From positions 72,855 through 132,712 of the forward strand of contig JBEKTP010000001.1 in assembly GCA_049515915.1 (NCBI GenBank): a DNA stretch of 59,858 nucleotides. Reading direction: 5' to 3'. Every line of letters begins with the position of its first letter. Within the stretch, counting starts at the first letter, position 1. The DNA is from Patescibacteria group bacterium. Its GTDB lineage: Bacteria > Patescibacteriota > UBA1384 > UBA12157 > JAENIV01. A program made the translations under genes and the position numbers. The notes below the pieces were generated by a model. The model did no database searches. It was not told the DNA's origin and saw only the letters and a list, made by a program, of their open reading frames with translations. This document shows positions 2,875 through 23,170 of this stretch, one piece after another.

Positions 2875-2932
<58 letters not shown>

Positions 2933-3310: not shown

Positions 3311-3327
3311 AGAATCAGGAATGAGGA
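3311..3327 (-). repeat. cassette 1 terminal helix, 3' arm
   Basis: UCCUCAUUCCUGAUUCU pairs fully (2 G-U) with 4430-4446; homologous to 22628-22646. Confidence 0.8.
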
Positions 3328-3720
3328 GGGGACGCGGGTGCGTCCCCTCGGTATGGAACGAGCAAAAGACTTGCTCGAGGATTTTATGTGCGGGCGCGTG
3401 TAGGTGCGCGCCCGCACTTTGCCTGTAACGAAATCTTCAGTTTTCACACCGGTTCGGTGTGTGTCAGCCGGAAGAGCATTCTCCTTCCACAGCAGTTTGT
3501 GCGACAACGAAAACGAATATGAGCCGAAGCTCGGGACTTGTGGTCGGATGGGCGCCGCTGCGGGTGAGACGTTGGCGCCCATCCTAGTTGTTGGCCACGC
3601 TATTTGGGGTTTACAAGGAACAGAACAACGTAGCGTGGGTCCATCTTGTACAGAGGCCCGCTTTCTCCTCTCTCTCACGGCCTATCGATAGGCCGAAGCC
3701 TAAGTTTCGTCAGAATAGCA
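3326..3720 (-). ncRNA. putative structured ncRNA downstream of tRNA-like gene 1
   Basis: series of strong hairpins: 3326-3349 (10 bp), 3360-3376, 3388-3417 (11 bp), 3445-3461, 3521-3532 and 3689-3702 (both cUUCGg on minus strand), 3546-3584 (11 bp), 3595-3638; no credible ORF. Confidence 0.65.
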
Positions 3721-3721
3721 A

Positions 3722-3808
3722 TGGCCCCGGCGGGATTCGAACCCGCGATATCCGTCCCGGGTCACTGCTGTGGCCCAGTAGCCTTAGGCCAAACTAGGCG
3801 ACGGGGCC
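3722..3808 (-). tRNA. tRNA-like gene 1 (87 nt), anticodon undeterminable, no encoded CCA
   Basis: acceptor GGCCCCG/CGGGGCC+A, D arm GCCU/AGGC, T arm GCGGG-UUCGAAU-CCCGC; anticodon arm CUGGG/CCCGG encloses 12 nt (CCACAGCAGUGA); 10-nt variable region. Confidence 0.75.
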
Positions 3809-4003
3809 CGTCATGTCATACAGTAGTGCCAGCGTGATTGAAAGATCCGGATCCACTTCCCTTACCGATTCACACCACGCCAGCCCTGGATCCATCTCAC
3901 CCGGCACCAGCAATCCAGCACGGTTAGATGGAAACATCTCTGCTTCCCTCGCCGCTTTGCCTGGCTGATAGTGCTTATGCACGACTGGCAGAAACCCCGC
4001 CAT
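3794..4003 (-). CDS. small hypothetical protein (69 aa); stop codon lies inside tRNA-like gene 1
   Basis: AAGGAGG 5 nt before ATG; last 15 nt overlap the tRNA 5' end. Confidence 0.6.
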   Translation of the reverse strand: MAGFLPVVHKHYQPGKAAREAEMFPSNRAGLLVPGEMDPGLAWCESVREVDPDLSITLALLYDMTGPVA

Positions 4004-4029
4004 CGTCGCCTCCTTTCAACCCTTTCTCT

Positions 4030-4113
4030 TTATCCCACCCAGTTGAAAGTCAGCCCCACCAGAATGATGGTAGCCATCAGAATTCCAAGCAGAACATCCT
4101 CCAGCTTCTTCAT
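4030..4113 (-). CDS. 27-aa hydrophobic peptide MKKLEDVLLGILMATIILVGLTFNWVG
   Basis: GGAGG RBS; ATGA overlap with upstream ORF; below ORF-track cutoff. Confidence 0.55.
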   Translation of the reverse strand: MKKLEDVLLGILMATIILVGLTFNWVG

Positions 4114-4205
4114 CGCCGTTTCCTCCGACTCCGGTAGATGACAATGGCTGGAGACGCCATAAAGAGGAACCATGCAACTGCCAACAGCCAGTGATACCAT
4201 TTCAT
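4110..4205 (-). CDS. 31-aa membrane peptide with basic tail MKWYHWLLAVAWFLFMASPAIVIYRSRRKRR
   Basis: AAGGAGG 5 nt before ATG; below ORF-track cutoff. Confidence 0.6.
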   Translation of the reverse strand: MKWYHWLLAVAWFLFMASPAIVIYRSRRKRR

Positions 4206-4217
4206 CGCCGCCTCCTT

Positions 4218-4436
4218 TCAGTCATCGACTCCGAAGAATGCAGCTCCAACTTCGCGGCGCCAGGCAACGGTGTGCCAATAAGCTCGATCGGCATCGGCTT
4301 CATCTTCAGAACGACTTGCCAGATCTGCTCTAATTGCATGATGTAATGCGATGTCTCTGGCCGTCACCCCGTACTCACGAAACCGGCTTTGGACATGATC
4401 CAGTTCGTTCATTATCAGATCCCCTTTCTTCCTCAT
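4218..4436 (-). CDS. small hypothetical protein (72 aa; alternative start 4412)
   Basis: ORF track; GGAGG before ATG 4436 and AAGGGG before ATG 4412. Confidence 0.6.
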   Translation of the reverse strand: MRKKGDLIMNELDHVQSRFREYGVTARDIALHHAIRADLASRSEDEADADRAYWHTVAWRREVGAAFFGVDD

Positions 4437-4446
4437 TCCTAATTCC
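4430..4446 (-). repeat. cassette 1 terminal helix, 5' arm
   Basis: GGAAUUAGGAAUGAGGA; homologous to 23152-23170. Confidence 0.8.
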
Positions 4447-4585
4447 CTCCTGCGCCCTTACTGAAAAACCTATTACAAAGTGTACTTTCAGTGCGGGCTA
4501 TGGAGAGCAAGCCAAATTTTTAAGTTGCAATATTTTCTTTTGTATTTTGTATTTTTGTATCGAATTTTTTGTAGTTTGTAGCAGT

Positions 4586-5206
4586 TTAACTTTTTATCAC
4601 TTGATCGACAATTCCATATTTCTTAGCCTCCGCGGCGGTCATATAGAAATCGCGGTCGGTGTCTTTTTCGATTTTGGCGATTGTCTGACCGGTATGTTTG
4701 GCTAAAACTTCATTAATCGCTTTTTTGATCCGTAAAATCTCGCGCGTTTGGATTTCGACGTCGGTCGCTTGGCCTTCGGCCCCGCCCATCACTTGATGAA
4801 TCATTACCCGCGCGTTCGGTAAAGCGTATCTTTTCCCCTTTGTGCCGGCCGCGAGCAATACCGCGGCGGCCGAAGCCGCTTGACCGATACAAATCGTTTC
4901 CACATCCGGTTTGATGTACTGAATCGTATCGTAGATCGCCATGCCCGCCGAAACCACCCCACCAGGTGAGTTGATATAAACGGAAATATCTTTTTTCGGG
5001 TCTTCCGATTCCAAAAACAAAAGTTGGGCCATAATCAAATTGGCGACATGGTCGTCAATCGGCCCACCCAAAAAGATAATCCGGTCAACCAAAAGCCGAC
5101 TATATATATCATAGGCGCGTTCACCAAACTGGGTTTTTTCCACCACCATCGGCACCAGATATTGATTGATAATTTCCTTTTTATTAAGAGAACTTTTTTC
5201 GTTCAT
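4586..5206 (-). CDS. clpP: ATP-dependent Clp protease proteolytic subunit
   Basis: [30 protein letters not shown] motifs. Confidence 0.98.
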
Positions 5207-5222
5207 TAATACCTCGACGTAA

Positions 5223-5251
5223 ATTATACTTTACATTCGAGCGTTTGTCAA
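5223..5251 (-). promoter_or_regulatory. consensus sigma70 promoter of clpP
   Basis: TTGACA-17-TATAAT. Confidence 0.8.
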
Positions 5252-6117
5252 ATCAGAAAAGAACGATAAGTATCCTTGAGAGTCTTTTCTAAACTGATCT
5301 TTGGCTGCCAGCCGAGTTTTTTAATTTTAGTGCTATTGACGCAATTTTTAGTGATGTCTGACAGCCTTATCCGTTTTAGGTCAGGTGCGGTTTTAATTTT
5401 CTTTTTCGAGATGGCGATGATCTTTTTTAAAACTGATTTCATCGAGACCGGATGACCAGGACCGATATTATAGAACTCGCCGGTTTTTCCCTTTTGCATC
5501 ACCATTTTGTAAGCTCGCACGCAATCGCGAACATCGAACAGATCTCTTTTAGTCTCCAGGTTGCCGACCGCGATTTCGCCGTTATCTTTGGTAGCCGCAA
5601 TTTCAAAACAAAAATCCGGCACGGCAAAACCAGGTTTCTGACCCGGACCAGTGTGGTTGGTGGCCCGCGTAATCACAATTTCAAGATTATCGCCATGATA
5701 CTTTTTTGCTTCGACTTCCATCTTTAATTTGCTTTGGTCGTAAAAACTTCCAGGTGAGGTCGCGGCATTTTCTTTGGCACAAGTCGACGTATTACCATAA
5801 ACATAAGCGGTGGAGGCCAGCAACACTTTGCAGGGTTTTCCGATTTCCTTTAAGGCCCTCAAAATATTGAGAGTGCCCTCGACATTAACTTCAAAAATTA
5901 AATTCTTATCTTTGCCGGCCCCGGAAGCAAACCCAGCTAGATGATAAACTTGATCCGGTTTAATTTTTTTTAAGTAAATTTTTACTTGTGAAAATTTGGT
6001 GATGTCGGCTTGCGGACGATCGAGCCGGTAAATTTTATCTTGACTACGCCCTAAAAGTTCAACTAAATATTTACCAACAAAACCGTCAGAACCAGTGACA
6101 ACAATTTTCTTTTTCAT
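5248..6117 (-). CDS. NAD-dependent epimerase/reductase, GDP-4-keto-6-deoxymannose reductase (Rmd)-like
   Basis: TGSDGFVG, YxxSK, NHTGPGQ, RDLFDVRD; adjacent to gmd. Confidence 0.8.
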   Translation of the reverse strand: MKKKIVVTGSDGFVGKYLVELLGRSQDKIYRLDRPQADITKFSQVKIYLKKIKPDQVYHLAGFASGAGKDKNLIFEVNVEGTLNILRALKEIGKPCKVLLASTAYVYGNTSTCAKENAATSPGSFYDQSKLKMEVEAKKYHGDNLEIVITRATNHTGPGQKPGFAVPDFCFEIAATKDNGEIAVGNLETKRDLFDVRDCVRAYKMVMQKGKTGEFYNIGPGHPVSMKSVLKKIIAISKKKIKTAPDLKRIRLSDITKNCVNSTKIKKLGWQPKISLEKTLKDTYRSFLI

Positions 6118-6118
6118 C

Positions 6119-7159
6119 TCAAATCCTAAAATTTTGCAGGGTGTCTAAATCTCTTTTTACTCGAGTAGTCAGATGATTTCTCACGTCACTTTCAACCATC
6201 ATTTTAACCAGCTCTTCAAAATCTACTTTCGACTTCCAGCCCAGTTTCTTTTGGGCCTTCGTTGGATCAGCTCTTAAATCCATCACCTCGGCCGGTCTCA
6301 TAAACTTCTGGTCGATTTTAACATATTTTTGCCAGTGATCGATATCAGCCGCCTTAAAAGCAGCGATGACAAAATCTTTAATCGTATGATTGACGCCGGT
6401 CCCCACCACGTAATCATCAGGCTTGTCTTGTTGTAAGATCAACCACATCGCTTCGACATAATCGCCGGCAAAGCCCCAATCTCTCTTAGCCTCTAAAGTA
6501 CCGAGCCTTAACTCCTTAGCCAAACCTAACTTGATTTTGGCCACCCCATCGGTAATTTTTCGAGTGACAAATTCTAAGCCACGGCGTGGCGATTCGTGAT
6601 TAAATAAAATGCCGCTACAAGCAAAAAGGCCATAACTTTCTCGATAATTCACGGTGATATAGTGGCCAAAAACTTTTGAGACACCGTAAGGCGAGCGAGG
6701 ATAAAAACGGGTTTCTTCATTTTGCGGCGGTAAAGCCGCGCCAAACATCTCCGAAGAAGAAGCTTGATAAAACTTCGCTTTGGAACAAACCTGTCTCATC
6801 GCTTCTAAAACTCTTAACACCCCCAGACCGGTATATTCACCCGTGGAAAGCGGTTCGCTCCAAGAACCTTTGACAAAAGATTGGGCGGCTAAATTATAAA
6901 TTTCGTCCGGCTGAATTTCAGTCATAATACTAACCAGCGATGACTGATCCCCCAGATCGCCGTTGACAATATGAATCTGATCTAAAATATGAGCAACGCG
7001 TTCAAGATTTTGAGTGCTGGTCCGGCGAACCATTCCATAGACTTCATAGCCTTTGGAAAGTAAAAACTCGGCTAAATATGATCCATCTTGACCAGTTAGC
7101 CCCGTGATTAAAGCCCTTTTTTTCTTATTCGTCTCCCCTTTCCTTTGATTTTCGGGCAT
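6119..7159 (-). CDS. gmd: GDP-mannose 4,6-dehydratase
   Basis: [39 protein letters not shown]. Confidence 0.97.
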
Positions 7160-7204
7160 TTTTATCCTCCTGTAAGTTAGTCCTTAGTAAATCAAAATTA
7201 TCAG

Positions 7205-7233
7205 ATGTTAAGAGAACTGGCAAGTTCTGTCAA
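7205..7233 (-). promoter_or_regulatory. gmd-rmd promoter with palindromic operator in the spacer
   Basis: TTGACA-17-TAACAT; AGAACT-N4-AGTTCT at 7213-7228. Confidence 0.6.
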
Positions 7234-7266
7234 GGACACTATCGATTTTACTCAGGGAGTACTAAT

Positions 7267-8451
7267 TTATTTTGTCGCCAAACTTATTAATTTTTCGAGA
7301 GCTTTTTTACCCGCTTCTTTATCCTTAGGATCAATCTTTTCAGATTTCACTATCTCTCCTAAAGCCAGACCAATTTTAATCGTACGTTCTGCTTGAGGTC
7401 TCAAACCTTCCTTAAATTCATCCAAACTTTTTTTCAAATTTCCAAGATATTGTTCAAACGTTAAACCAAACATCGAAACGCGCGAACGCATTTCATTGAC
7501 TTCGCGTTCAATTTCTTGCTTAATCAGACTTTCCGGCACGTCAACTTTAACCATCCGCAGCAATCCTTCCAAAACTTCATTTTCGATTTCTTTACCTTCT
7601 TTTTCTCTTTTTTGTTTGATAATATCTTCCGCGATCGATTTTTTAAGCTCCGGAACCGAGGGTTTTTGAAATTTTTTGGCAAAATCGTCGTTAATTTGAG
7701 GCAGGATGACTTTTTGTGTTTCTAAAACTTCCACTTTAAAATCTATTTTTCGCTTTTTATCTTCAGGTTTCGGCGACATTTCTAAACTAAATTCCTTTTT
7801 TTCACCCTTCTTAAGACCGATGAGTTTTTTTTCAAACTCGGGGATTAAAACTTTACTGCCTAAGATAACCGGATAATTTTTGCTTGATAAATTCTCGAGC
7901 TTGATCCCTTTTTCAAAGCCCTCAAAATTCATTTCCAGACGATCACCTTCTTCTAGCGGACCTTCAAAAGATTTAAAGTCGGACTGCTGCCGCGCAAGAT
8001 GTGAAATTACTTGCTCGATTTCTTCGTCACTGGCTTTGAAATTTTTAGTTAATTTTTTATGAGCCTTAATTTTCGTATAATCGCCCAATTCCACTTTCGG
8101 CAGCAAATCAATTTCTGCCTCGTATTCAAGTTCGGCCGTATCGGCCGTCAAATCTTTAAGCATTTTAATATTGATAACGGGCGGCGCAATCGGCAATAAG
8201 TTCTCTTTTTTTAGCGCTGAAGGATAACTTTCCTGCAAGGCCAAATCAACAATCTCCGAGTTAATTCGGTTTTCACCAATGGCCGAAAGAATCATCGAAC
8301 GCGGCGCGCTGCCGGGTCGAAAACCTTCAATTTGGACTTGGGGCGCGAGCTTTTTATAGACACGATCAAAAAAACCTCGCATTTCCGGCGAAGATAATTT
8401 TATCGTCAGCTTGGCTTTGGATTTCGGCAGTAATTCTTTTCTTATTTCCAC
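7267..8451 (-). CDS. tig: trigger factor
   Basis: GFRPGSAP ribosome-binding motif, FKBP-like middle domain; GTG 8451 is the likely start (track 8502). Confidence 0.95.
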   Translation of the reverse strand: MEIRKELLPKSKAKLTIKLSSPEMRGFFDRVYKKLAPQVQIEGFRPGSAPRSMILSAIGENRINSEIVDLALQESYPSALKKENLLPIAPPVINIKMLKDLTADTAELEYEAEIDLLPKVELGDYTKIKAHKKLTKNFKASDEEIEQVISHLARQQSDFKSFEGPLEEGDRLEMNFEGFEKGIKLENLSSKNYPVILGSKVLIPEFEKKLIGLKKGEKKEFSLEMSPKPEDKKRKIDFKVEVLETQKVILPQINDDFAKKFQKPSVPELKKSIAEDIIKQKREKEGKEIENEVLEGLLRMVKVDVPESLIKQEIEREVNEMRSRVSMFGLTFEQYLGNLKKSLDEFKEGLRPQAERTIKIGLALGEIVKSEKIDPKDKEAGKKALEKLISLATK

Positions 8452-8515
8452 AAGTTCAATGATAACAAAAAATCGCTCTTTTATCAATAGTCCATCAGAC
8501 AATAAAAATCTTAAA

Positions 8516-9634
8516 CTATTCTAACACTTCGAGCCCAGGTAATTTCTTACCGGCTAAATATTCTAAAGACGCCCCGCCGGCATTGGAAATAAAATCAAAA
8601 TTATCCGCTAAACCGACTTTTCGGACAAAAGCAGAAGTATCGCCCCCGCCGGCATATTTTTTGGCGCTGGAATTGGCAATAGCTTCCGCAATCCTCCAGG
8701 TGCCTCGGCTAAATGCCGGCACTTCGGAAACGCCCATGTTGCCATTCCAAAAAATGGTCTTGGCTTTTTTAATTTCATATTTATAATTGGCTGTCGTCTC
8801 CACGCCAATATCGACACCCATGAGCCCGTCAATTTCTTGAGTTGATTTAATGCTAATTTCTTTTGTTCCGACCGGCTTTTCTAAAGACTTTGAAAACAAG
8901 AGATCGGTCGGAAGAAACAATTTCTTAGATGAGTCTTTCTCAAAATTTTCAATAATTTTTTTAGTATAAGGCAAAACTTTTTCTTCGATTAATGACCGGC
9001 CAAGCTGATATCCTCGGCCCACCAAAAATGTACTGGCCACCACTCCGCCGATAATAAATACTTCCCCTCGATCGAATAGATTTTCAATGACCGGTAATTT
9101 GTCCTCGGCTTTTTTCCCACCGATAATAATCATCAATCCTTTTTTCGGACTTGATAGAATCTGAGATAAACCCTCGACTTCGTGCTGAACGGACATCCCG
9201 GCATAGCTTGGCAACAATTTGGCCACCCCGACCGTGGAAGCGTGGGCTCTGTGGCAGGTGGCAAAAGCATCCTGGACAAAAATGTCCTGACCCAACGCCA
9301 GTTTTTTGGCAAAGGCCAAATCATTTTTTTCTTCACCGGCGTTGAAGCGAAGATTTTCTAAGATATTCCAGTAATCATGCGTGCCGATTAATTCGACAAG
9401 TTTTTTTTCCACCGGCAAAATTTTCAAATGATTAACCGTCTGGCCCATCGGTCGACCAAGATGACCCATAATCGTGACTTGCCGCGCGCCGTTTTCAAGC
9501 AGATATTTAATCGTTGGGACGCTAGCCGATAAACGCTCACTGTCAGTTACTTTACCGTCAGTGATCGGTACATCGGCATCAATACGTAAGAGGATATTTT
9601 TACCTTTAATTTTTGCTTGTTGAACCTTTTTCAT
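8516..9634 (-). CDS. pgk: phosphoglycerate kinase
   Basis: GHLGRP, LENLRF, DAFATCHRAHAS, GGGDT, NAGGASLE. Confidence 0.97.
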   Translation of the reverse strand: MKKVQQAKIKGKNILLRIDADVPITDGKVTDSERLSASVPTIKYLLENGARQVTIMGHLGRPMGQTVNHLKILPVEKKLVELIGTHDYWNILENLRFNAGEEKNDLAFAKKLALGQDIFVQDAFATCHRAHASTVGVAKLLPSYAGMSVQHEVEGLSQILSSPKKGLMIIIGGKKAEDKLPVIENLFDRGEVFIIGGVVASTFLVGRGYQLGRSLIEEKVLPYTKKIIENFEKDSSKKLFLPTDLLFSKSLEKPVGTKEISIKSTQEIDGLMGVDIGVETTANYKYEIKKAKTIFWNGNMGVSEVPAFSRGTWRIAEAIANSSAKKYAGGGDTSAFVRKVGLADNFDFISNAGGASLEYLAGKKLPGLEVLE

Positions 9635-10136
9635 TTAATTTTAAGACTCCAAAAGCCATAACGCCGCCGATAAGTGCCGTGATGATTTGCGGCCAGGCCA
9701 TCATCGTGGCGGCTGCTTTAAGAGCGATATTATGATTTGAGATTAAGCCAATAACGATAGTTGATGTTAAATATAAAAAAGCGTATTTAAATAAGGTGCC
9801 GCCCAAAACGCCGGCCCAGTAGTTAGTTTTGCGCAGACTCGAAAACACGACTATTAAGATGGCATTGGAAATCATAATAAATGGAATCATGGGCGCTAAT
9901 GGCGCTAATAATAAACCCGATATTAAGGCCACCACCGACGGAAATAATCCGATCAAAACGGCATTTCCCGCCCCGATTGTCATTACGGCGATAAATAAGA
10001 CAGCGTTAACAATCGGCCCGGTCACAAATTGGTTGTGAATATAGTGTGGCACGACTACCGCCACGGCCATCAAACCTACAAACCAAGCAATTTCTTTAGC
10101 TCTTAATTTTTCTAAAACTTTTGTTTGAGCGTTCAT
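9606..10136 (-). CDS. integral membrane protein, ECF S-component/HymD-like, coupled to the hydrogenase
   Basis: 5-6 hydrophobic helices, QFVTGPIVNAVLF motif, WPQIITALIGG C-terminus; ATGA overlap with hydrogenase stop. Confidence 0.65.
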   Translation of the reverse strand: MNAQTKVLEKLRAKEIAWFVGLMAVAVVVPHYIHNQFVTGPIVNAVLFIAVMTIGAGNAVLIGLFPSVVALISGLLLAPLAPMIPFIMISNAILIVVFSSLRKTNYWAGVLGGTLFKYAFLYLTSTIVIGLISNHNIALKAAATMMAWPQIITALIGGVMAFGVLKLNEKGSTSKN

Positions 10137-11557: not shown

Positions 11558-11655
11558 AAGGCCTCACTGATAGCAAACTTAAACTAATAACTAATACTGA
11601 TCTTTCTAATTATATATGCGTTATTTGTTACAATTTATTATTAGTGAGGCAAGCT

Positions 11656-11850
11656 TTAGTCGAACAATGTCCGAAAAAGCCAGATGGCCCCGATTAAAAA
11701 CAAGACCAAGGCCACAATGGTCAGCACGGTCATGGGTGGGAACCAGCTCGTTCCCGTGTCGGCCGAGACGAAGATTCGATCCACGCCCAAGGTCAAGACA
11801 CCTATAATTAAAATAATAATCCCAATGGATGATTGAACTGATTTTTTCAA
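11656..11850 (-). CDS. small two-helix membrane protein
   Basis: 64 aa, two hydrophobic segments, co-oriented with neighbours. Confidence 0.65.
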   Translation of the reverse strand: MKKSVQSSIGIIILIIGVLTLGVDRIFVSADTGTSWFPPMTVLTIVALVLFLIGAIWLFRTLFD

Positions 11851-11882
11851 ACTTCCTCCTCTTTAGAATCCTTATTCATATA

Positions 11883-12287
11883 TTACTTATGTTGGTCAAG
11901 CCACGCTTTGAGAGTATTTTCATCCTGATAACCCGTCAAACGATCACCATTGGCGGCGATAAAAGTCGGCGTGCCATCGATTTTGTATTGCGAAGCCAAA
12001 TTAGAGTCCGTCGCAATATCCATCGGTTTAAGTTTATAACCTTGTTTGCCTAAATCAGGCAAGACGTCCGCTTCTTCTTGTTGACACCAATGGCAATAAT
12101 CGGAATAAAAAAACATTATCTTAGCGTCAGAAGAAAAATAGGTCTGATTTTGCGACAAGGCTGTCGGCGAGGGTGAAGAAGTGGCACTGCCACCACTGTT
12201 ATTTGAAATTTTCGAGTATCCAAAAATGGCAAAAACAACAATCACGACTAAGACGATACCAATCACGATTATCCAACTTTTACCCAT
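11883..12287 (-). CDS. membrane-anchored thioredoxin-family protein
   Basis: N-terminal TM helix, CHWC active site, GTPTF cis-Pro motif. Confidence 0.85.
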   Translation of the reverse strand: MGKSWIIVIGIVLVVIVVFAIFGYSKISNNSGGSATSSPSPTALSQNQTYFSSDAKIMFFYSDYCHWCQQEEADVLPDLGKQGYKLKPMDIATDSNLASQYKIDGTPTFIAANGDRLTGYQDENTLKAWLDQHK

Positions 12288-12307
12288 GGCGCTCCTCTAT
12301 TGGGATA

Positions 12308-15568: not shown

Positions 15569-16369
15569 TTATTCTTCCTCTCTGCCAGCAATTTTTTCGC
15601 AAATTTTAATAAACTCATTGGCTTTCAATGACGCGCCCCCCACTAAAGCCCCATCAATTTCCGGTTGATAAACAAAATCTTTAATATTTTCCGAATCCAC
15701 CGAGCCGCCATAGAGGATTCTTATTTCCTGGGCAATTTCATCGCCGTATTTATCCGATAAAACCTTTCTTAATTTAAAGGCCATTTCATTGGCATATTCA
15801 CCAGTGGCCGGCGTACCAGTGCCGATTGCCCAAACTGGCTCATAGGCAATAATCACTTTAGAGACATTTTCGGCCGAAACACCCTTTAAAGCCGCTCTTA
15901 ACTCTTCCAAAATATCCATTTTAACGGAAATCTCTGAAGGACGGCCTCTCCCTTTTTTGACTTGAGGCATTTTTTTAAGTTCGCCGACAGCAATAATGGG
16001 CCTAATTTTATGCAGTAGCGCCGCTTGAACTTTATCATTGATTAAGGCATTAGATTCGTCAAAATGCATTCGCCGTTCGCTGTGCCCTAAAATAACGTAA
16101 CTGGCTAAACCTTCGAGCATTAAAGGTGAAATTTCCCCGGTCATGGCTCCTTTTTCAGCAAACCACATATTTTGGGCGCCAAGTTTCAGATTAGCCGGGG
16201 CATGTTCTAACAATTCCTGCATCGGCACGAGCCAAGTAAAAGGCGGGCATAAAACAATTTCCGCTTCTTCGAGTTCGTGAGCCGCATTGCGAATGGCCGT
16301 CGTTAAAACGATGGCGTCGGACAAAGTCGTATTCATTTTCCAATTACCAATAATCAGAGGCTTTCTCAT
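15569..16369 (-). CDS. tpiA: triosephosphate isomerase
   Basis: GNWKMN, GHSERR, AYEPVWAIGTG, LYGGSV, GALVGGASL. Confidence 0.98.
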   Translation of the reverse strand: MRKPLIIGNWKMNTTLSDAIVLTTAIRNAAHELEEAEIVLCPPFTWLVPMQELLEHAPANLKLGAQNMWFAEKGAMTGEISPLMLEGLASYVILGHSERRMHFDESNALINDKVQAALLHKIRPIIAVGELKKMPQVKKGRGRPSEISVKMDILEELRAALKGVSAENVSKVIIAYEPVWAIGTGTPATGEYANEMAFKLRKVLSDKYGDEIAQEIRILYGGSVDSENIKDFVYQPEIDGALVGGASLKANEFIKICEKIAGREEE

Positions 16370-16435
16370 TATAAATCTCCTTTAGTACTAATATACTATA
16401 TTTTTATCAAACGAGCCATGAGCACAACCGAGCAA

Positions 16436-17644
16436 TTATTTTAAATTCTGCCGATGTCTCAGACGGTAATATTCAATCGCAAACCGGTGAGCTTCGTCGC
16501 GAACCCGAAGTAAGAGTTTTTTATCGAACGATAAATTATTCGCCCCGATGATTTCGTTTTTATCTCGATCTGGTCCTTTGGCGATGCCGATGACTGGAAT
16601 GGGCAAACGCCTAATTTTTAAGATTTCTTTGGCCCCATTGACCTGGCCTTTCCCGCCATCGATTAAAATTAGGTCCGGCATGGCCCATTCGCTATGATTC
16701 AAGCGTCGATCCAACATTTCTTTTAAAGCGGCAATATCGTTGACGCCGGAAACGGTATTGATTTTGAATTTGCGATATTGCGACTTATCAATTAAGCCTT
16801 CGGTAAAAACAATCATCGAACCAACCGCGAACGCACCCGAAATGTTAGAAATATCGTAGGCCTCAATTCGAGACGGAATGTCTTGCGGATACAGCAGATT
16901 TTCTTCGGTGATTAAGGCGACATCTTGAATGTGCTTTAAAGCAAAAATTTTATCGCGTAATTTGGCCGCGCCTTCGAAATCCATTTTTTTGGCCGATTCT
17001 TTCATCTCTTTTTCTAATTCTTTGATGACGCTCTTTTTTTTGCCACGCAAAAACAGTTTTATTTGGCGAATGGTTTTTTGATAATCTTTCTTTTCCACCT
17101 TGCCGGCGCAAACGCCCGGGCATTGGCCGAGATGGTATTCAAAACAGGCTTTGCCAGACAAGGGTGTGCAAGATACTCGAAACGGAAAGATTTTACGAAT
17201 AATTTGGAGCGCCTCGCGGACTTGACCAGCCGATGGAAATGGACCGTAGAATTCTCCTTTGGGCAATTTTTGAGTGATTCTCGCCGGATATACCCGCGGC
17301 CACTCTTCTTTAGTAATAAAAATACCCAAAAAAGTCTTGTCGTCTTTGAGCTTAATATTATATTTTGGTTTATATTTTTTAATTAAGTCATTTTCTAAAA
17401 ATAAGGCTTCGATCACCGAATCGGTTTTTTTGGTTTCAATATTAGAAATTTGAGAGAGCATTTGTTCGATGCGCGTTTCCTGCGGCCGCTGAAAATACGA
17501 CAATGTCCGCCGCTTAAGCGAAGAAGCTTTGCCGATATATAAAGGACGACGATTTTTATCACGCATCACATAAACACCGGGACTATCGGGAAATTTTTTA
17601 ATTTTAAAAACAAGCTTTTCGTTCATGATTTTATATTTTAACAC
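16436..17644 (-). CDS. uvrC: excinuclease ABC subunit C, short form
   Basis: GIY-YIG N-terminus (PGVY...LYIGKA), RIEAYDISN, LILIDGG, RDEAHRFA; no C-terminal HhH. Confidence 0.93.
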   Translation of the reverse strand: MLKYKIMNEKLVFKIKKFPDSPGVYVMRDKNRRPLYIGKASSLKRRTLSYFQRPQETRIEQMLSQISNIETKKTDSVIEALFLENDLIKKYKPKYNIKLKDDKTFLGIFITKEEWPRVYPARITQKLPKGEFYGPFPSAGQVREALQIIRKIFPFRVSCTPLSGKACFEYHLGQCPGVCAGKVEKKDYQKTIRQIKLFLRGKKKSVIKELEKEMKESAKKMDFEGAAKLRDKIFALKHIQDVALITEENLLYPQDIPSRIEAYDISNISGAFAVGSMIVFTEGLIDKSQYRKFKINTVSGVNDIAALKEMLDRRLNHSEWAMPDLILIDGGKGQVNGAKEILKIRRLPIPVIGIAKGPDRDKNEIIGANNLSFDKKLLLRVRDEAHRFAIEYYRLRHRQNLK

Positions 17645-17661
17645 TTATTTAAAAAAAATAG

Positions 17662-20484
17662 CTATTTTTTTTGTTTCAGAACATTTTTTAAAAATTGGCC
17701 CGTATATGATTTTTGAACATGAGCGATTTCTTCGGGATCGCCGGTCGCCACGACTTTACCGCCGTCGTCGCCGCCTTCGGGTCCTAAATCGATAATGTAA
17801 TCGGCAGTTTTTATAACATCGAGATTGTGCTCAATTACTATAACAGAATTCCCAGCGTCAACCAAACGATTCAAAACATTTAACAATTTTTTGATGTCGT
17901 CAAAATGAAGGCCGGTCGTCGGCTCGTCCAAAATATATAAAGTTTTGCCTGTCGCCCGATGGGCCAGTTCGGTCGCCAATTTGACTCGCTGAGCCTCCCC
18001 ACCCGAAAGAGTTGTGGCCGGCTGACCTAAATGAATATAGCCCAAGCCGACATCATTTAAAACTTCTAATATATCCGCGATTTTAGGAATATCACGGAAA
18101 AAATCCAAGGCCTCTTCAACCGTCATTTCTAAAATATCAGCGATATTTTTTCCTTTAAATTTAACTTCTAACGTTTCACGGTTAAAACGTTTGCCGCCGC
18201 AAACATCACACGGGATGTAAACGTCCGGCATAAAATGCATTTCAATTTTAATCACGCCATCACCTTGGCAATTATCACAACGACCGCCGGAGACGTTGAA
18301 AGAAAACCGGCCCGGTAAATAGCCCCGCATCCTTGCCTCTTTAGTTTTGGCAAATATTTCACGGATTGGCGAAAAAACACCCGTGTAAGTTGCCGGATTT
18401 GAGCGCGGTGTTCGGCCAATTGGCGATTGGTCAATAATAATCGCTTTATCCAAACTTTCGGCGCCTTCGATCCGATTATATTTTCCCGGCCTTTCCAATG
18501 CACCCATTAATTTTCTCGCCAAGGCTTTGTATAAAATTTCATTAACAAGCGATGATTTTCCGGAACCAGAAACTCCCGTCACGCAAGTCAAAACCCCCAC
18601 CGGAAAATGTACGGTGATATTTTTCAAATTATTTTCGTTAGCGCCGTAAACACTTAAATATTTTTCTTTTATCTTCCGGCGGTTTTCCGGAACTTCGATT
18701 TTTTTTACGCCGGCCAAGTATTGCCCGGTAATCGAATCGGGTGTCCCAATAATATCTTCGATCTTCCCCTGAGCTACAATTTCTCCGCCGCGACGCCCGG
18801 CGCCCGGTCCGATATCAACGATTTGATCCGCTTCGCGCATGGTTTCTTCATCGTGCTCAATAATAATAACGGTGTTACCTAAATTCCGCAGTTTTAATAA
18901 GGTATTTAAAAGTCGAGTATTGTCGCGCGAGTGCAAGCCAACCGACGGTTCATCTAAAATATACAAAACGCCGACCAGACCAGACCCGATTTGAGAGGCC
19001 AGCCGAATTCTTTGTGCTTCACCGCCAGCCAAAGTAAAGGCCGCGCGGTCTAAAGTCAAATAATCCAAACCGACATCAACTAAAAATTTCAAACGGTTTT
19101 TGATTTCTTGAATGATTTTTTGAGCAATCAAAATTTCTTTGGCGGAAAGTTTTAAATTCTCAAAAAAATTGAATGCACTTTTGACCGTCAGCGCCGTGAC
19201 TTCGGAAATGTTTTGAGCTTGAATCATCACCAGCAAACTTTCTTTTTTCAACCTTGCCCCGAAGCACACTTCACACGGCCGGTTGCTCATATACCGTTCA
19301 ATTTCGCGGCGAACGTTATCGGACTCCGTTTGTTTGTAACGCCGCTCTAATAAAGGGATCATCCCTTCAAAATTGATCCAAAAAGTATTGGCATGGCCAT
19401 GAGTCCAGTAACGAATCTTAATGGTTTCAATGCCGCCTGAACCATGCAAAATCGAATCGATTTGTTTATCATTAAAGCTCGTAAGCGGCGTATGTTCCGA
19501 AAGTCCTAACCTTTGGCAAGCCGCCCTTAAAATTACACCGTAATAATTATTCGGCTTGTAAGACAAGGGTAAAATAGCCCCTTGAGAAATGGCTAGATTT
19601 TTATCGGGAATAATTAAATGCGGATCAATTTCTTTTTTAACGCCTAAGCCATCGCAGGTTGGACAAGCACCGTAGGGGGAATTAAACGAAAATACCCGCG
19701 GTTCAATTTCGGGGATACTCACGCCATGAACCGGACAAGTCAATCTTTGATTAAATATTTCCTCTTTTTTATTATGAGTAATTAAAACTAAACCGTCAGC
19801 CAACTTTAACGATTGTTCAATATCGTCGGTGATTCGACCGATATTTTCAGATTTGACTTCGACTTCATCAACCAAAATTTCAATCGTGTGCTGCTGGTAG
19901 CGAGCGAGTGTAACTTTCTTTTCTAACTCAATTATTCGACCATTGACGCGCGCTTTGGAAAATCCCTGCTTAAAATAATTTTTCAACAAGGTATGATATT
20001 CCCCTTTTCGGCCACGAACGACCGGCGCATAGATTTTGACTTTTTCGCCCTCGCCCAAATCGAGAACCTTTTCTACTATTTGCTCGACGGAAAGTTTAGT
20101 AATCGGCTCGCCGCCAATCGGACAATGAGGAATACCGATGCGGGCATAGAGAACCCTGAGATAATCGTAAATCTCCGTCACCGTGCCCACCGTCGAGCGC
20201 GGGTTGTGCGAAGCCGCTTTTTGATCAATTGAGATCGCCGGCGATAAGCCTTCGATTGATTCGACGTTCGGTTTTTCCATCTGCCCTAAAAATTGCCGCG
20301 CATAGCTCGACAAAGATTCTAAATATCGCCGCTGGCCTTCGGCATAAATGGTGTCAAATGCCAAAGTTGACTTGCCGCTCCCGGAAAGTCCAGTAAAAAC
20401 AATTAATTTGTTGCGCGGCAACTCAAGATTGATATTTTTTAAATTGTGCTCTTTCGCCCCGCGAATGATGATTTTATCGTACAT
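17662..20484 (-). CDS. uvrA: excinuclease ABC subunit A
   Basis: two Walker A motifs (GLSGSGKS, GVSGSGKS), zinc fingers, LSGGEAQR. Confidence 0.98.
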   Translation of the reverse strand: MYDKIIIRGAKEHNLKNINLELPRNKLIVFTGLSGSGKSTLAFDTIYAEGQRRYLESLSSYARQFLGQMEKPNVESIEGLSPAISIDQKAASHNPRSTVGTVTEIYDYLRVLYARIGIPHCPIGGEPITKLSVEQIVEKVLDLGEGEKVKIYAPVVRGRKGEYHTLLKNYFKQGFSKARVNGRIIELEKKVTLARYQQHTIEILVDEVEVKSENIGRITDDIEQSLKLADGLVLITHNKKEEIFNQRLTCPVHGVSIPEIEPRVFSFNSPYGACPTCDGLGVKKEIDPHLIIPDKNLAISQGAILPLSYKPNNYYGVILRAACQRLGLSEHTPLTSFNDKQIDSILHGSGGIETIKIRYWTHGHANTFWINFEGMIPLLERRYKQTESDNVRREIERYMSNRPCEVCFGARLKKESLLVMIQAQNISEVTALTVKSAFNFFENLKLSAKEILIAQKIIQEIKNRLKFLVDVGLDYLTLDRAAFTLAGGEAQRIRLASQIGSGLVGVLYILDEPSVGLHSRDNTRLLNTLLKLRNLGNTVIIIEHDEETMREADQIVDIGPGAGRRGGEIVAQGKIEDIIGTPDSITGQYLAGVKKIEVPENRRKIKEKYLSVYGANENNLKNITVHFPVGVLTCVTGVSGSGKSSLVNEILYKALARKLMGALERPGKYNRIEGAESLDKAIIIDQSPIGRTPRSNPATYTGVFSPIREIFAKTKEARMRGYLPGRFSFNVSGGRCDNCQGDGVIKIEMHFMPDVYIPCDVCGGKRFNRETLEVKFKGKNIADILEMTVEEALDFFRDIPKIADILEVLNDVGLGYIHLGQPATTLSGGEAQRVKLATELAHRATGKTLYILDEPTTGLHFDDIKKLLNVLNRLVDAGNSVIVIEHNLDVIKTADYIIDLGPEGGDDGGKVVATGDPEEIAHVQKSYTGQFLKNVLKQKK

Positions 20485-20612
20485 ACGCTAAAAGTTCCCG
20501 CGTTTGGCGGGTTTTCCTACACAAAGATTTTAAGTGCGGCTATATTGTAGCACAATAAACAGTGGAAATCTATTGACATCTGATTGCCGCCCCTCAATTC
20601 ATTTTCGAGAAC

Positions 20613-22571
20613 TTATCTAAGCCTCAATTTTTTAAGCTGAATAATCTCGTCACGCAAAATCGCCGCCCGCTCGAATTCTAAATTTTGAGCCGCTTTTTTC
20701 ATTTCGATTTCTTTAAAACGGATCGCCGCCGGCAAATCTTCGATTTTTTCTAAGTCAATAAATTCTGGGGTGACTTCGGGCCTGAGTTCATGATCGATAA
20801 TACTCTCGATCGTCTTTTGAATAGTTTTCGGTGTAATATGATGTTTTACATTAAATTTTATTTGTTTAGCCCGCCGGCGATTAGTTTCGTCAATCGCTCG
20901 TTTCATTGAGCCAGTCATATTATCGGCATACAAAATGACCATACCGCGAACATTTCGCGCTGCCCGGCCGATAGTTTGAACCAACGATACATCCGAGCGT
21001 AAAAATCCCTCTTTATCCGCGTCTAAAATTGCGACTAAGGAAACCTCCGGCAAATCCAAGCCTTCGCGCAATAAATTCACCCCGACCAAAACATCAAATT
21101 CACCTTTGCGCAAATTTTCCAAAATTCCCACTCGATCCAAAGTGTCAACTTCGCTATGCAGATATTCGGCACGCACGCCAATTTCTTTAAAATGGTCTGA
21201 AAGTTCTTCGGCCATTCTTTTTGTTAAAGTAGTAACTAAAATTCTCTCCTCCGCTTTGGCGCGTTTTTTGATTTCTTTGGTTAAATCATCGACTTGTCCT
21301 TCGATTGATCTTACTTCGACTTCTGGATCAACCAAACCGGTCGGTCGGATAATCTGCTCGACAATTTGTTTCGAATGTTCCCTCTCAAAGCTTGCTGGCG
21401 TCGCCGTGGTATAAATAACTTGATTTATTTTGGTCTGAAATTCCGGAAATTTTAACGGCCGGTTATCTCGAGCCGATGGTAAACGAAAACCATGTTCAAC
21501 CAGCGAATCTTTTCGCGATTTATCGCCCTCAAACATTCCCCGAAGCTGAGGAATAGTCACGTGTGATTCATCAATAATCATCAAAAAATCTTCGGGGAAA
21601 TAATCAATCAACGTATAAGGCGCTTGACCTTCTTTTCGGCCGGTCAAGTACCGCGAATAATTTTCAATTCCGGCGCAATAACCGATTTCACGAAGTAGCT
21701 CCAAGTCGTAACGCGTCCGTCGTCGCAGTCTCTCCGCCTCCACAAATTTCCCCCTTTTTTCAAAATAAGAAACCCGCTCTTTTAGTTCTTTTTCAATGGC
21801 CATAATCGATTTTTGCATCGTCGGTGATGTAACCACGAAATGCTTGGCGGGATAAATCATCAGTTTTTTTTCATCATAAAGTTTTCTCATCGTGACAGCC
21901 TCAAAAACCGTGATTTTAGTTAGCCAATCTTTCTCAATTTCGATCCGAATAATAACTTCTCGATCGGCCGGCATAATTTCAATTGTTCCGCCATGAACTC
22001 TAAATTTCCCGCGAGATAAAATTTCAGAGCGTTCAAAATACATTTCAACCAAACGATTAATAATATCCTCGCGCGCAATTTCCTCGCCCACCGCTAAATT
22101 TAAATGACTTTCGCGATAAACTTCCGGACTACCCAAACCATAGATACACGAAACCGAAGCGACGACAATCACATCGCGCCGCGCCAGTAACGCCTGGGTA
22201 GCGGCATGGCGCAACCGATCAATTTCTTCATTAATTTCAACATCTTTTTCAATATAGATATCAGTGTTCGGCATATAAGCTTCGGGTTGATAATAATCGT
22301 AGTAGGACACAAAATATTCGACGGCACTTTCCGGAAAAAAAGTGCGAAACTCAGAACAAAGCTGGGCCGCCAAAGTTTTATTGTGAGCGATAACTAAAGT
22401 CGGCTTTTGAACTTTTTCAATCACATTAGCAATGCTAAAAGTTTTACCCGAACCAGTCACACCCAATAAAGTCTGGTGTTTAAAACCTTTTTTGATACCA
22501 TCAACCAATTTCGATATCGCCGCCGGCTGATCCCCGGCCGGCTTGAATTTTGAGGAAATCTTAAAATCCAT
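20613..22571 (-). CDS. uvrB: excinuclease ABC subunit B
   Basis: GVTGSGKT, YYDYYQPEAY, DESH, QTIGRAARN, C-terminal UVR domain. Confidence 0.98.
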   Translation of the reverse strand: MDFKISSKFKPAGDQPAAISKLVDGIKKGFKHQTLLGVTGSGKTFSIANVIEKVQKPTLVIAHNKTLAAQLCSEFRTFFPESAVEYFVSYYDYYQPEAYMPNTDIYIEKDVEINEEIDRLRHAATQALLARRDVIVVASVSCIYGLGSPEVYRESHLNLAVGEEIAREDIINRLVEMYFERSEILSRGKFRVHGGTIEIMPADREVIIRIEIEKDWLTKITVFEAVTMRKLYDEKKLMIYPAKHFVVTSPTMQKSIMAIEKELKERVSYFEKRGKFVEAERLRRRTRYDLELLREIGYCAGIENYSRYLTGRKEGQAPYTLIDYFPEDFLMIIDESHVTIPQLRGMFEGDKSRKDSLVEHGFRLPSARDNRPLKFPEFQTKINQVIYTTATPASFEREHSKQIVEQIIRPTGLVDPEVEVRSIEGQVDDLTKEIKKRAKAEERILVTTLTKRMAEELSDHFKEIGVRAEYLHSEVDTLDRVGILENLRKGEFDVLVGVNLLREGLDLPEVSLVAILDADKEGFLRSDVSLVQTIGRAARNVRGMVILYADNMTGSMKRAIDETNRRRAKQIKFNVKHHITPKTIQKTIESIIDHELRPEVTPEFIDLEKIEDLPAAIRFKEIEMKKAAQNLEFERAAILRDEIIQLKKLRLR

Positions 22572-22627
22572 ATGGCGATATCATACCATATTTTTACAAA
22601 AAAATCTATTATTGATGAAATTAGTTC

Positions 22628-22646
22628 TAAGAATTAGAGATGGGGA
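22628..22646 (-). repeat. cassette 2 terminal helix, 3' arm
   Basis: UCCCCAUCUCUAAUUCUUA pairs with 23152-23170 (18/19). Confidence 0.8.
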
Positions 22647-22910
22647 GCGAGCCTCGCCGGCCGGCGGGGCTCGCGATAAGAGGATAAGAGAGAGGTGGGC
22701 GCCGGACCACAGCCAGTCTGACGCCCTCAAGATGGCACAAGTTGGGGTGGTGGGGGGGTGTCGACTTGAGCCTCCCTGATTTTAACCTCTCAAAGTTAGA
22801 GGGTGCGAGGGATATTTGGGTAGGGAGAACCCATTTATCCACAATGCCCTGGATCTTGGCTATTCACTCATTGACGCCGCTTCCCTTTTCGGACACTCGC
22901 ACCCAAATCA

Positions 22911-22986
22911 TGATAGGAACTTTCGGATTCGAACCGAAGAGCAACCATTAGCTACCGCTTGCTCTTCCATCCTAAGCTAAGTCCCT
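22911..22986 (-). tRNA. tRNA-like gene 2, degenerate anticodon arm, ends AUCA
   Basis: acceptor AGGGACU/AGUUCCU, D arm GCUU-AGGAUGGAA-GAGC, T arm UUCGG-UUCGAAU-CCGAA; anticodon loop UAGCUAA lacks U33; weak anticodon stem with G.G mismatch. Confidence 0.7.
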
Positions 22987-23035
22987 ACCCGACATAAGAG
23001 GAGAGGACCTTGCGGTCGAAACATCAGAGAGGCTT

Positions 23036-23158
23036 TTACCACAGGACGTAGCCCAAGTTACGCGTGACAAAAGGCCTGTCTGATTTAGTGTTTCCCATCA
23101 ACACGGACAAGGGCCTTGGGGCTAACCCGATCAGATAGCTCTCCTCACTTTTCCTCAT
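23036..23158 (-). CDS. possible 40-aa ORF within cassette 2 (MRKSEESYLIGLAPRP...)
   Basis: ATG lies inside the terminal-helix motif as in cassette 1, but no SD and it overlaps a structured domain. Confidence 0.2.
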   Translation of the reverse strand: MRKSEESYLIGLAPRPLSVLMGNTKSDRPFVTRNLGYVLW

Positions 23159-23170
23159 CTCTAATTCTCA
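23152..23170 (-). repeat. cassette 2 terminal helix, 5' arm
   Basis: UGAGAAUUAGAGAUGAGGA. Confidence 0.8.

Follow-up and report, generated by a model that had tools for sequence, protein, structure and literature searches.

What kind of element is represented by the two GC-rich intergenic islands in a 59,858-nt stretch of a Patescibacteria group bacterium genome (GenBank contig JBEKTP010000001.1, positions 72,855 to 132,712; the whole stretch is called the window below), and is the inverted repeat that closes each island an RNA helix or a DNA repeat? The best named relatives of the window's UvrB protein are Berkelbacteria, which belong to the candidate phyla radiation (CPR, Patescibacteria), and almost all of the window's genes are on the minus strand. 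Very little is known about non-coding RNAs in the CPR, whose members are uncultivated. A preliminary description of the window had proposed that both islands encode long RNAs of one family, each closed by a covarying terminal helix and delivering a tRNA mimic together with variable cargo. Our analysis reveals that the islands belong to a real, lineage-specific and apparently undescribed family of cassettes, in which unrelated cargo is enclosed each time, at fixed positions in the genome, by the same conserved terminal stalk. This stalk may act as RNA, or its two arms may act as DNA repeats. As a device for RNA processing or for masking a Shine-Dalgarno (SD) sequence, it would make the family a simple case of modular RNA architecture; as a DNA repeat, it would point to an unknown mobilisation system.

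Two cassettes in the window

The islands have a GC content of 0.51-0.57 (first) and 0.46-0.49 (second) against about 0.42 in the host, and between the arms it is 0.55 in cassette 1 and 0.53 in cassette 2. The neighbours of cassette 1 are clpP and the 16S rRNA promoter (3288-3260), those of cassette 2 a terminator and the apparently leaderless uvrB. A scan with the arm pattern GRGAATTAGRRATGAGGA, allowing at most 3 mismatches, gave exactly four matches in the 59.9 kb, at 3310-3327(+), 4430-4447(-), 22629-22646(+) and 23152-23169(-), which make two inward-facing pairs; as a search pattern, such a pair can be written 5' GAATTAGRRATGAGG within 2 kb of CATYYCTRATTC. Shuffled windows contained 0.45 matches on average, and four were reached in none of 100 shuffles.

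On the minus strand, the purine-rich, SD-like 5' arm of cassette 1, GGGAATTAGGAATGAGGAAG (4428..4447), and its pyrimidine-rich, anti-SD-like 3' arm, TCCTCATTCCTGATTCTTA (3309..3327), can be read as 17 Watson-Crick or G.U pairs with two outer G.U pairs, and the minimum free energy (MFE) fold joins 4428-4447 with 3309-3327 by 18 of 19 pairs at a mean probability of 0.89. For cassette 2, also on the minus strand, the 5' arm TGAGAATTAGAGATGAGGA (23152..23170) and the 3' arm TCCCCATCTCTAATTCTTA (22628..22646) form 18 of 19 pairs with one A.C mismatch and a mean fold probability of 0.92. Each arm was called by pattern match, by duplex and by the fold. Both islands fold better than their shuffles, with z about -6, and beyond the arms and the T loop the two cassettes have no common sequence.

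Most of what the preliminary description had said about the window held up. This applies to the GC-richer islands, to the arm pairs at both of them (the four pattern matches are the only ones in the window), to the layout of tRNA-like element, folded domain, GC hairpin and arms in both cassettes, and to the double change between the copies from AGGAAUG/CAUUCCU to AGAGAUG/CAUCUCU, which is real. The TTGACA-16-TATAAT promoter of cassette 2 is a perfect, 12/12 match, and we likewise saw no target-site duplication at the two window cassettes, the flanks of which differ.

A family at two genomic sites

Relatives were collected from the uvrB neighbourhoods of UvrB homologues (77-97% identity) and by an unbiased metagenome scan with the 5' arm. 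The family that had been proposed from two copies does exist: 11 cassettes at nine loci, two in the window and nine in related Berkelbacteria, have the same arms in one orientation and variable cargo, and in 10 of them the 3' arm is preceded, at a distance of 0-2 nt, by the end of a stable hairpin (-16 to -31 kcal/mol). The cassettes are GC-rich and 0.16-1.1 kb in size; each follows the terminator of a housekeeping gene and precedes the promoter of the next such gene. All 11 occupy one of two syntenic sites, either the upstream flank of uvrB or the gap that separates clpP from the 16S promoter, and dozens of samples of the window's population carry identical cassettes. Among the metagenome matches listed, true cassettes were found in 4 of 118 stretches, and all five true hits lie at these same two sites. 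There was no further arm in about 150 kb of Berkelbacteria DNA examined. The viral contigs scanned held no cassette, their 5'-arm matches being mostly chance or cyanobacterial-type (AGGAATK)n heptamer repeats and their 3'-arm matches chance matches in coding DNA only, and phage records gave no blastn match to either cassette. Full-text literature searches pairing Berkelbacteria, Patescibacteria or CPR with tRNA, tRNA-like or structured RNA brought up no description of such cassettes.

Across the family the cargo comprises tRNA pairs, a hydrophobic open reading frame (ORF) of 21 aa, thioredoxin, tRNA-like elements and folded RNAs. At the uvrB site, the relative with 97% UvrB identity (L005) has cassette 2 minus about 200 nt, including most of the tRNA-like element. 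L008 holds the arms, the 21-aa ORF and the RNAs that we call X and Z, and L210 is like it with tRNA-Gln and tRNA-Ala in addition; in L142 the arms surround tRNA-Met and tRNA-Phe plus hairpins, and in L143 a hairpin-closed RNA of about 120 nt plus X. The minimal cassette, 157 nt in L204, consists of the arm, the 21-aa ORF, a scrap of X and the 3' arm. L141 has a remnant only, namely promoter, leader and a scrap of the 3' arm, and the site is empty, without even the promoter, in L006, L265 and L269. At the clpP-16S site, L248 carries two tandem cassettes, the first with thioredoxin and a tRNA-like element, the second with a 64-aa ORF, a tRNA-like element and a folded RNA, and L262 carries one cassette with two modules of SD, ORF and tRNA-like element, the second of which is thioredoxin.

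Every tRNA, tRNA-like element and ORF is co-oriented with the arms, and an invertible segment is ruled out by the cargo orientation, identical in 11 of 11 cassettes. All seven uvrB-site cassettes have a perfect TTGACA -35 box, a spacer of 16-18 nt and a -10-like box, located 17-55 nt upstream of the arm; these promoters are consensus matches. In five cassettes a terminator-like hairpin stands just after the 3' arm. We considered the GC hairpin with the 3' arm as an intrinsic terminator as well, which is ruled out since no U tract directly follows the stem. Promoter and leader lie outside the arms, are kept with the cassette and are missing from empty sites, so what is gained or lost does not end at the arms.

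A possible stalk-closed transcript

The reading that we favour, although we give it slightly less than an even chance, is a Berkelbacteria-specific family whose promoter-driven transcript is closed by a stalk with a processing, stabilising or SD-masking role and is divided at tRNAs or tRNA-like elements. A single RNA, co-directional with the downstream gene, would be made from each cassette. At the uvrB site its transcription would start from the cassette's own sigma-70 promoter; at the 16S site, read-through or an unrecognised promoter would account for it. The purine-rich 5' arm GAAUUAG-RR-AUGAGGAA would then pair with the pyrimidine-rich 3' arm CAUYYCUGAUUCUUA over 17-20 bp, with the stable hairpin stacked beside the 3' arm. 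Such a stalk would clamp the ends of the transcript and, because it is like the processing stalks of rRNA operons, would likely be an entry site for a double-strand RNase of the RNase III type, or a stabilisation site. It would also hide the SD-like GAGGA of the 5' arm, which may serve the first ORF where one is present, and the tRNAs and tRNA-like elements would be cut by RNase P and RNase Z, splitting the cargo into mRNA, tRNA and folded RNAs. Transcription, stalk formation in vivo, cleavage by the three RNases and SD masking are steps that we infer from sequence.

Bacterial rRNA operons are framed by long-range leader-trailer helices which are cut by RNase III. The window offers its own example, a 27-bp long-range stalk around its 16S gene (464-490 with 3039-3065, 93% complementary), and the cassettes have the arrangement of such stalks, a duplex of at least about 17 bp that flanks stable RNAs in a promoter-to-terminator unit, when consensus promoters and predicted duplexes are taken. 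In both systems a duplex of 17-27 bp joins partners hundreds to thousands of nucleotides apart and flanks stable RNAs in one transcript, a proposed one for the cassettes, and homologous cassettes enclose genuine tRNAs. Unlike rRNA stalks, the cassette arms recur with the same sequence at two loci and in different species around wholly different content, they enclose protein genes and decayed tRNAs, the whole is dispensable, and the 5' arm doubles as an SD sequence.

What the arms are

The two arms are conserved to different degrees. In the 5' arm, GAATTAG-RR-ATGAGGAA, 15 of 17 columns are invariant, and in the 3' arm, CATYYCTGATTCTTA, 8 of 17. When the 11 cassettes are aligned, 87.7% of the cells are paired, against 39-51% with the partner slid. 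The MFE structure contains the arm-arm pairing in every cassette, with 15-18 of 19 pairs, and the mean pair probability is 0.82-0.95 even across 1.1 kb.

Several findings weigh against an RNA stalk. Covariation of the arms is weak: two-sided change affects just 3 of 20 pairs, the covariation score is 0.165 (0.141 after shuffling) and is reached by 18 of 500 shuffles, and in the core helix A.C departures are about as frequent as G.U. The very position highlighted in the preliminary description is G-C in four cassettes, A-U in three and an A.C mismatch in four. The 'covarying terminal helix' was therefore overstated: with few two-sided changes and a score barely above shuffles, the arms are conserved mainly as sequence, and covariation leaves the RNA helix unproven. 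They are sequence-conserved repeats that would fit recognition as DNA or by a protein equally well. Besides, the opposite strand of both islands folds equally well, the four 16S-site cassettes have no recognisable promoter, and the cassettes are patchy among close relatives (three empty sites and one remnant, as above). Cargo ORFs have a GC content at third codon positions (GC3) of 0.60-0.72 against 0.42 in host genes, and the closest relative of the cargo thioredoxin outside cassettes (66% identity) sits in a GC-rich trx-trxR-nuo operon. Patchiness, GC3 and this relative look like mobile or horizontally acquired DNA and not like a housekeeping RNA operon, and transcription, the transcript ends and cleavage are each things that we infer.

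These same points nourish the main rival of a transcript closed by its ends, namely that the arms are the terminal inverted repeats of a non-autonomous mobile cassette, like miniature inverted-repeat transposable elements (MITEs) or mobile insertion cassettes, or are recombination anchors of an exchange hot spot, with RNA pairing as incidental. We regard this as unlikely, at about one half of the standing of a coin toss. Inverted repeats of 17-20 bp kept by sequence rather than covariation, presence or absence among close relatives at the uvrB site, tandem cassettes in L248, the duplicated module in L262, the foreign-looking GC3, the thioredoxin relative and complete replacement of cargo where flanking genes are about 75-90% identical all agree with it. 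In four cassettes the repeat extends to TTAAGAATT/AATTCTTAA, which may be read as a TTAA duplication; the palindromic TTAA is, however, inseparable from the repeat itself, and comparison of flanks gave no unambiguous target-site duplication among the cassettes. Against mobility stand also the restriction of the copies found to two sites, which includes the five metagenome hits, the absence of copies from the viral contigs scanned, and the promoter and leader that come and go with the cassette although they are outside the arms. L005, L141 and L204 vary by internal deletion, not by clean excision. No transposase or integrase is located within +/-5-10 kb, and a Y1_Tnp gene near uvrA in L006 and L143 is uncorrelated with cassette presence.

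MITEs and mobile insertion cassettes are bounded by terminal inverted repeats, lack a transposase and in some cases have passenger genes, and in transcripts of Correia elements RNase III cuts the hairpins of the terminal repeats. Terminal repeats of about 20 bp (here 17-20 bp, 87.7% complementary), the lack of a transposase inside, variable passengers, patchiness and RNA pairing if transcribed are common to both. The cassettes differ by the lack of a target-site duplication, two known sites, the travelling promoter and leader, the asymmetric arms and internal deletion. Three arguments keep us with a stalk formed in RNA: the framing by promoter, hairpin and terminator-like structure; the asymmetric conservation of the arms, which would not be expected if a single transposase bound both ends; and a clear RNA-type constraint in the cassette interiors.

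Possible masking of the Shine-Dalgarno sequence, and small hydrophobic peptides

The arms contain GAGGA and UCCUC, and the tail of the 16S rRNA is CCUCCUUUCU. As the 3' arm resembles this anti-SD tail, stalk formation would also mask translation. In cassette 1, L008, L204, L210 and L248B an ORF begins 6-9 nt after the SD-like tract of the arm.

This raises the alternative that the core of the family is type I toxin-like, a hydrophobic-peptide mRNA whose 5'-arm SD is locked by the anti-SD-like 3' arm, with the RNAs as later insertions. Type I toxin mRNAs such as hok and aapA1 have a long-distance interaction between their 5' and 3' ends, and the cassettes recall them by a small hydrophobic ORF and the predicted sequestration of the SD by the 3' end. 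L204, in which a short spacer separates the 21-aa ORF from the 3' arm, is of like size and shape; the ORF (MGRWIAILLA...GGVR) is intact in L008, L204 and L210; cassette 1 encodes single-helix peptides of 31 and 27 aa behind strong SD sequences; and the predicted probability of the stalk is high throughout. We nevertheless hold a toxin origin to be improbable. Cassette 2, L005, L142 and L143 have the arms without a following ORF, most changes that distinguish the 21-aa ORFs of the loci are non-synonymous, and the thioredoxin cassettes at the 16S site are left unexplained. No antitoxin RNA was identified, the promoter scan having found no antisense promoter inside cassette 2, with no wider antisense search made. 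The tRNAs, folded RNAs and thioredoxin carried by the cassettes, and the many cassettes without an ORF, set them apart from hok and aapA1 as well.

A possible role in punctuation rather than decoding

A canonical tRNA is taken here as one with an Rfam tRNA score of at least 29 bits and a 7-nt anticodon loop with U33. Genuine tRNAs are carried by L142 (tRNA-Met, 69.6 bits; tRNA-Phe, 64.6 bits), and L210 holds tRNA-Gln (44 bits) and tRNA-Ala (61 bits). The element of cassette 1 (3722-3808, minus strand) scores 39 bits and is given by ARAGORN as type '???' with a 4-base anticodon 'ccac'; it has the acceptor GGCCCCG/CGGGGCC with A73, a normal T arm and an anticodon region of 27 nt. It belongs to a family of five, together with two elements of L248 and two of L262. 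In this family the acceptor with A73 is invariant, the T stem covaries (GCGGG/CCCGC, GCGCG/CGCGC, GUGGG/CCCGC), and the D and anticodon regions are free in length, the whole element being 75 to about 100 nt long; the L248B element folds as a clean cloverleaf, but with A33. Each member directly follows an ORF. A phage tRNA-Leu has the same acceptor and T arm, and because of this match the family probably derives from a tRNA.

RNase P, RNase Z and the CCA-adding enzyme recognise the acceptor/T minihelix of a tRNA. Since only this minihelix is conserved while the rest drifts, and since each element stands directly after an ORF, the elements may be processing or punctuation signals rather than decoders. 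Punctuation by tRNAs, or 3'-end formation by tRNA-like signals, occurs in mitochondrial transcripts, in mascRNA/MALAT1 and in tRNA-mRNA co-transcripts. The likeness lies in an intact minihelix placed directly after ORFs, twice over in L262, with invariance limited to the parts that these three enzymes recognise; the cassettes differ in being bacterial and lineage-specific and in having an outer stalk.

The element of cassette 2 (22912-22987, minus strand) is of another kind. ARAGORN alone calls it, as tRNA-Ser, and the fold contains a 9-bp anticodon-type stem; Rfam gave no tRNA match even at E<=10. It is most likely a decaying tRNA gene, because by position and partly by sequence it aligns with the second, real tRNA of L210. 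Of the two window elements, that of cassette 1 alone is a member of a conserved tRNA-like family. A 'tRNA mimic' is not the constant payload, as L005 has cassette 2 without it and L142 and L210 carry ordinary tRNA pairs; the cassettes do not look like a dedicated RNA for delivering a tRNA mimic.

Duplication of a tRNA end as an integrase attachment site was also considered for the tRNA-like elements and is ruled out, both acceptor strands being present in every copy. What an attachment duplicate would look like is shown by a phage contig (L272, 6600-7370, minus strand), where a 38-nt copy of the 3' end of a tRNA-Leu(TAA), a true 3'-half duplication, lies about 680 nt downstream of the tRNA; it brackets two small ORFs and looks like a mini integrative element.

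Interior structure and known RNA families

Compensatory change, weak in the arms, is found in the interior helices: besides the T stem, the hairpins of L008 and L210 show it. Between these two loci, the domain that corresponds to the RNA Z-prime of cassette 2 has 9 compensatory pairs of 57 with none broken, including the hairpin adjacent to the arm. In RNA X a helix changes from CAAUG/CAUUG in the window to CGAUG/CAUCG in L005, and between the same two loci a U.G pair changes to U-A. With X and Z, at least one new RNA fold that has compensatory changes is added. The window-type and L008-type 3' domains are too divergent for automatic alignment.

The preliminary description had seen no fit to tmRNA, RNase P, SRP or 6S RNA and had asked for a comparison with Rfam. 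We used Rfam 15 (4,227 models; GOLLD, ROOL and YrlA are covered only if among these), which explained neither island. At gathering score the whole window gave only 16S, a group II fragment and one tRNA. At E<=10 both islands gave the tRNA match and noise, and at E<=0.1 the nine related loci gave tRNAs, 16S and one sub-threshold tmRNA match, which is confined to the tRNA-like part of the L248B element (28 bits against a gathering score of 47).

GOLLD and ROOL are large folded RNAs next to or enclosing tRNAs, and YrlA has a terminal stem and a tRNA-like module and is encoded next to rsr (Ro60/TROVE), often with rtcB. That the cassettes are a divergent member of these classes, of Y RNA, of tmRNA or of RNase P is highly improbable. 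The resemblance is one of outline, large structured RNAs with tRNAs or a tRNA-like module with a terminal stem, besides the sub-threshold tmRNA match. The cassettes have no covariance-model match at gathering score, such families are absent from the islands at E<=10, and the interior is not conserved between cassettes, there being no conserved core beyond the arms. No TROVE (Ro60) or RtcB was present among the Pfam-labelled genes within +/-5-6 kb of both cassettes and five related loci.

Origin and turnover of the cargo

The cargo looks foreign and dispensable and seems to turn over fast, and the two sites are where GC-rich foreign genes accumulate in a reduced genome of 42% GC. The cargo thioredoxin, with a CPPC motif, has a ratio of non-synonymous to synonymous polymorphism (pN/pS) of 0.58 between L248 and L262, that is, weak purifying selection, and the bearer of the trx-trxR-nuo operon mentioned above looks unlike a reduced CPR genome. 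The window has its own thioredoxin-fold gene with normal host GC (11883-12287, minus strand), so the cassette thioredoxin of L248 and L262 is an extra, foreign-looking copy.

A further explanation is that the arms and the invariant tRNA-like minihelix constitute a lineage-specific system which captures, swaps and expresses foreign GC-rich genes and RNAs at two landing pads, by integron-like or RNA-mediated exchange without a known recombinase, the stalk-closed transcript being the functional and possibly transferable or circularised unit. We think this rather doubtful, too. An integron cassette has at its 3' end a compact attC site (R''-L''...L'-R', RYYYAAC/GTTRRRY), with intI/attI nearby; here the repeats are not adjacent and are separated by the whole cargo, TCTTAAC/GTTAAGA fit six of seven attC positions in some cassettes only, and no integrase is found among the labelled neighbours of the cassettes.

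Two orphan genes of the window are also GC-rich. The first (34471-35304, plus strand) encodes a basic protein of 277 aa on the strand opposite to its neighbours, with GC3 0.61. Comparison with Pfam, PHROG, PADLOC and PDB sequences gave no match, and the protein is one of a small family (41 representatives at E<=1e-3); its AlphaFold model (pLDDT 92.8) has a beta-rich N-terminal half and a long helical C-terminal half, with no significant PDB fold match (best E 0.02, TM <0.3). The family is real and the model confident, but nothing links the protein to DNA transactions, and it was rejected as a candidate recombinase. The second (47569-48396, minus strand; 275 aa, GC3 0.68) has its own promoter-like site and a strong terminator hairpin at about 47520-47550; it gave no Pfam, PHROG or PADLOC match, and there are no arms on its flanks. 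This gene and the cassettes suggest that GC-rich foreign DNA has been taken up repeatedly.

Organisation of the two window cassettes

All parts of cassette 1 lie on the minus strand. Behind the 5' arm, ORF1 (4218..4412, GC 0.53) encodes 64 aa from the ATG at 4412, or 72 aa if begun at the arm-internal ATG, 4436, and has an SD-like AAAGGGG 9 nt upstream. ORF2, MKWYHWLLAVAWFLFMASPAIVIYRSRRKRR (4110..4205, GC3 0.59), encodes a single hydrophobic helix of 31 aa with a perfect AAGGAGG 6 nt upstream; listed with it is the TIR block TGAAAGGAGGCGRCGATG, a second copy of which precedes ORF4. ORF3, MKKLEDVLLGILMATIILVGLTFNWVG (4030..4113, GC3 0.64), encodes another single hydrophobic helix, of 27 aa, behind GGAGG. 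ORF4 (3794..4003, 69 aa, GC3 0.60 against 0.42 in the host) is preceded by AAGGAGG, and its stop falls within the tRNA-like element (3722..3808). Pfam and PHROGs returned no family for the cassette ORFs, and a search with the four ORFs of cassette 1 concatenated found no homologue, a weak negative as it missed the window's own proteins too. The 3' multi-hairpin domain (3348..3721, about 370 nt, fold z -6.2) has no detectable homologue in other cassettes and cannot be aligned with L248B. The GC hairpin GGGGACGCACCCGCGTCCCC (3328..3347, -21 kcal/mol) touches the 3' arm.

Just upstream of the 5' arm is another hairpin (CTCC..GCCCGCACTGAAA..TTTCAGT..GGGCGC..GGAG; 4447..4505, minus strand), which is a dispersed repeat and stands outside the stalk. 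Its core AAGTACACTTTGTAATAGGTTTT, the central 23-mer, recurs downstream of uvrB in L269-L271, which have no cassette there; the L269 copy (5030-5095) is near-identical.

In cassette 2, also on the minus strand, the promoter (23194..23221) is 26 nt upstream of GAATTAG. The variable segment (22988..23151) opens with the conserved TGATCGGGTTAGC and stands where L210 has its first tRNA; the greater part of this segment and of the adjacent tRNA-like element makes up the roughly 200 nt missing from L005. A 40-aa ORF that begins in the arm (23036-23158) found no support, Pfam and PHROG included. RNA X (22801..22903) has a conserved closing helix, GGGTGCGAG/CTCGCACCC, and a variable interior; besides the window, L005, L008, L143 and L210 have it, and L204 retains a remnant. 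Z-prime (22675..22800), seen in the fold, comprises the GAGAGGTTAAAATC motif, a C-rich loop, a hairpin and a CU-rich tract; the window shares GGTTAAAA with L008 and L210, and the C-rich tract with L142. The GC hairpin (22647..22674, -23 kcal/mol) touches the 3' arm.

Other repeats and neighbouring genes

A family of hairpins like repetitive extragenic palindromes (REP), CCNCCTTCGCRTRAAGCTACGGNGG, containing GTAG, is scattered in the related genomes (L204 at about 3969, L210 at about 1274, L248 at 2769 and 3750, L269 at 2957 and 5365). One copy lies within the first uvrB codons in L204, L210 and L269, with a new ATG after it, and the local hairpin immediately ahead of the 5' arm in L248 and L008 is a copy as well. 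The matching REP-associated tyrosine transposase could be a Y1-transposase-like gene (PF01797, weak), which L006 and L143 have between uvrA and uvrC.

The arm string of cassette 1, GAATTAGGAATGAGGAA, consists of 2.5 AGGAATK heptamers. It is also present in long tandem arrays of such heptamers, which were met in an IMG/VR contig of 100 kb and in numerous contigs from metagenomes (L009-L060, which are viral contigs, and many of L144-L261), often as inverted arrays around short hairpins (GAAATCCC..GGGATTTC TTTGATTGAAA). These arrays resemble the short tandem heptamer repeats of filamentous cyanobacteria, and no link with the cassettes was seen beyond the common string.

In L005, downstream of uvrB (7323-9018), an Lcl_C-domain protein and a bAvd-like protein replace uvrA, a pair that hints at a diversity-generating retroelement; no reverse transcriptase was seen in 12 kb.

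The 16S rRNA gene of the window (440-3065, minus strand) is split. Its Rfam match ends at 1571, after GTACAC, and the 3' end follows about 900 nt further on, with AAGTCGTAACAAGGTA at 624-639 and GGATCACCTCCTTTCT at about 590-605. The insertion contains a LAGLIDADG endonuclease ORF (648-1403) and a fragment of group II intron D1-D4 (1238-1320, 40.6 bits).

As to translation initiation, uvrB (22571-22600) and a gene of 657 aa at 36166-38139 (38139-38165), both on the minus strand, have the -10-like boxes TATGAT and TATAAT, respectively, only 7-9 nt before the ATG, and no SD sequence. Because about half of 45 host genes have no SD motif, leaderless mRNAs may be common in this organism.

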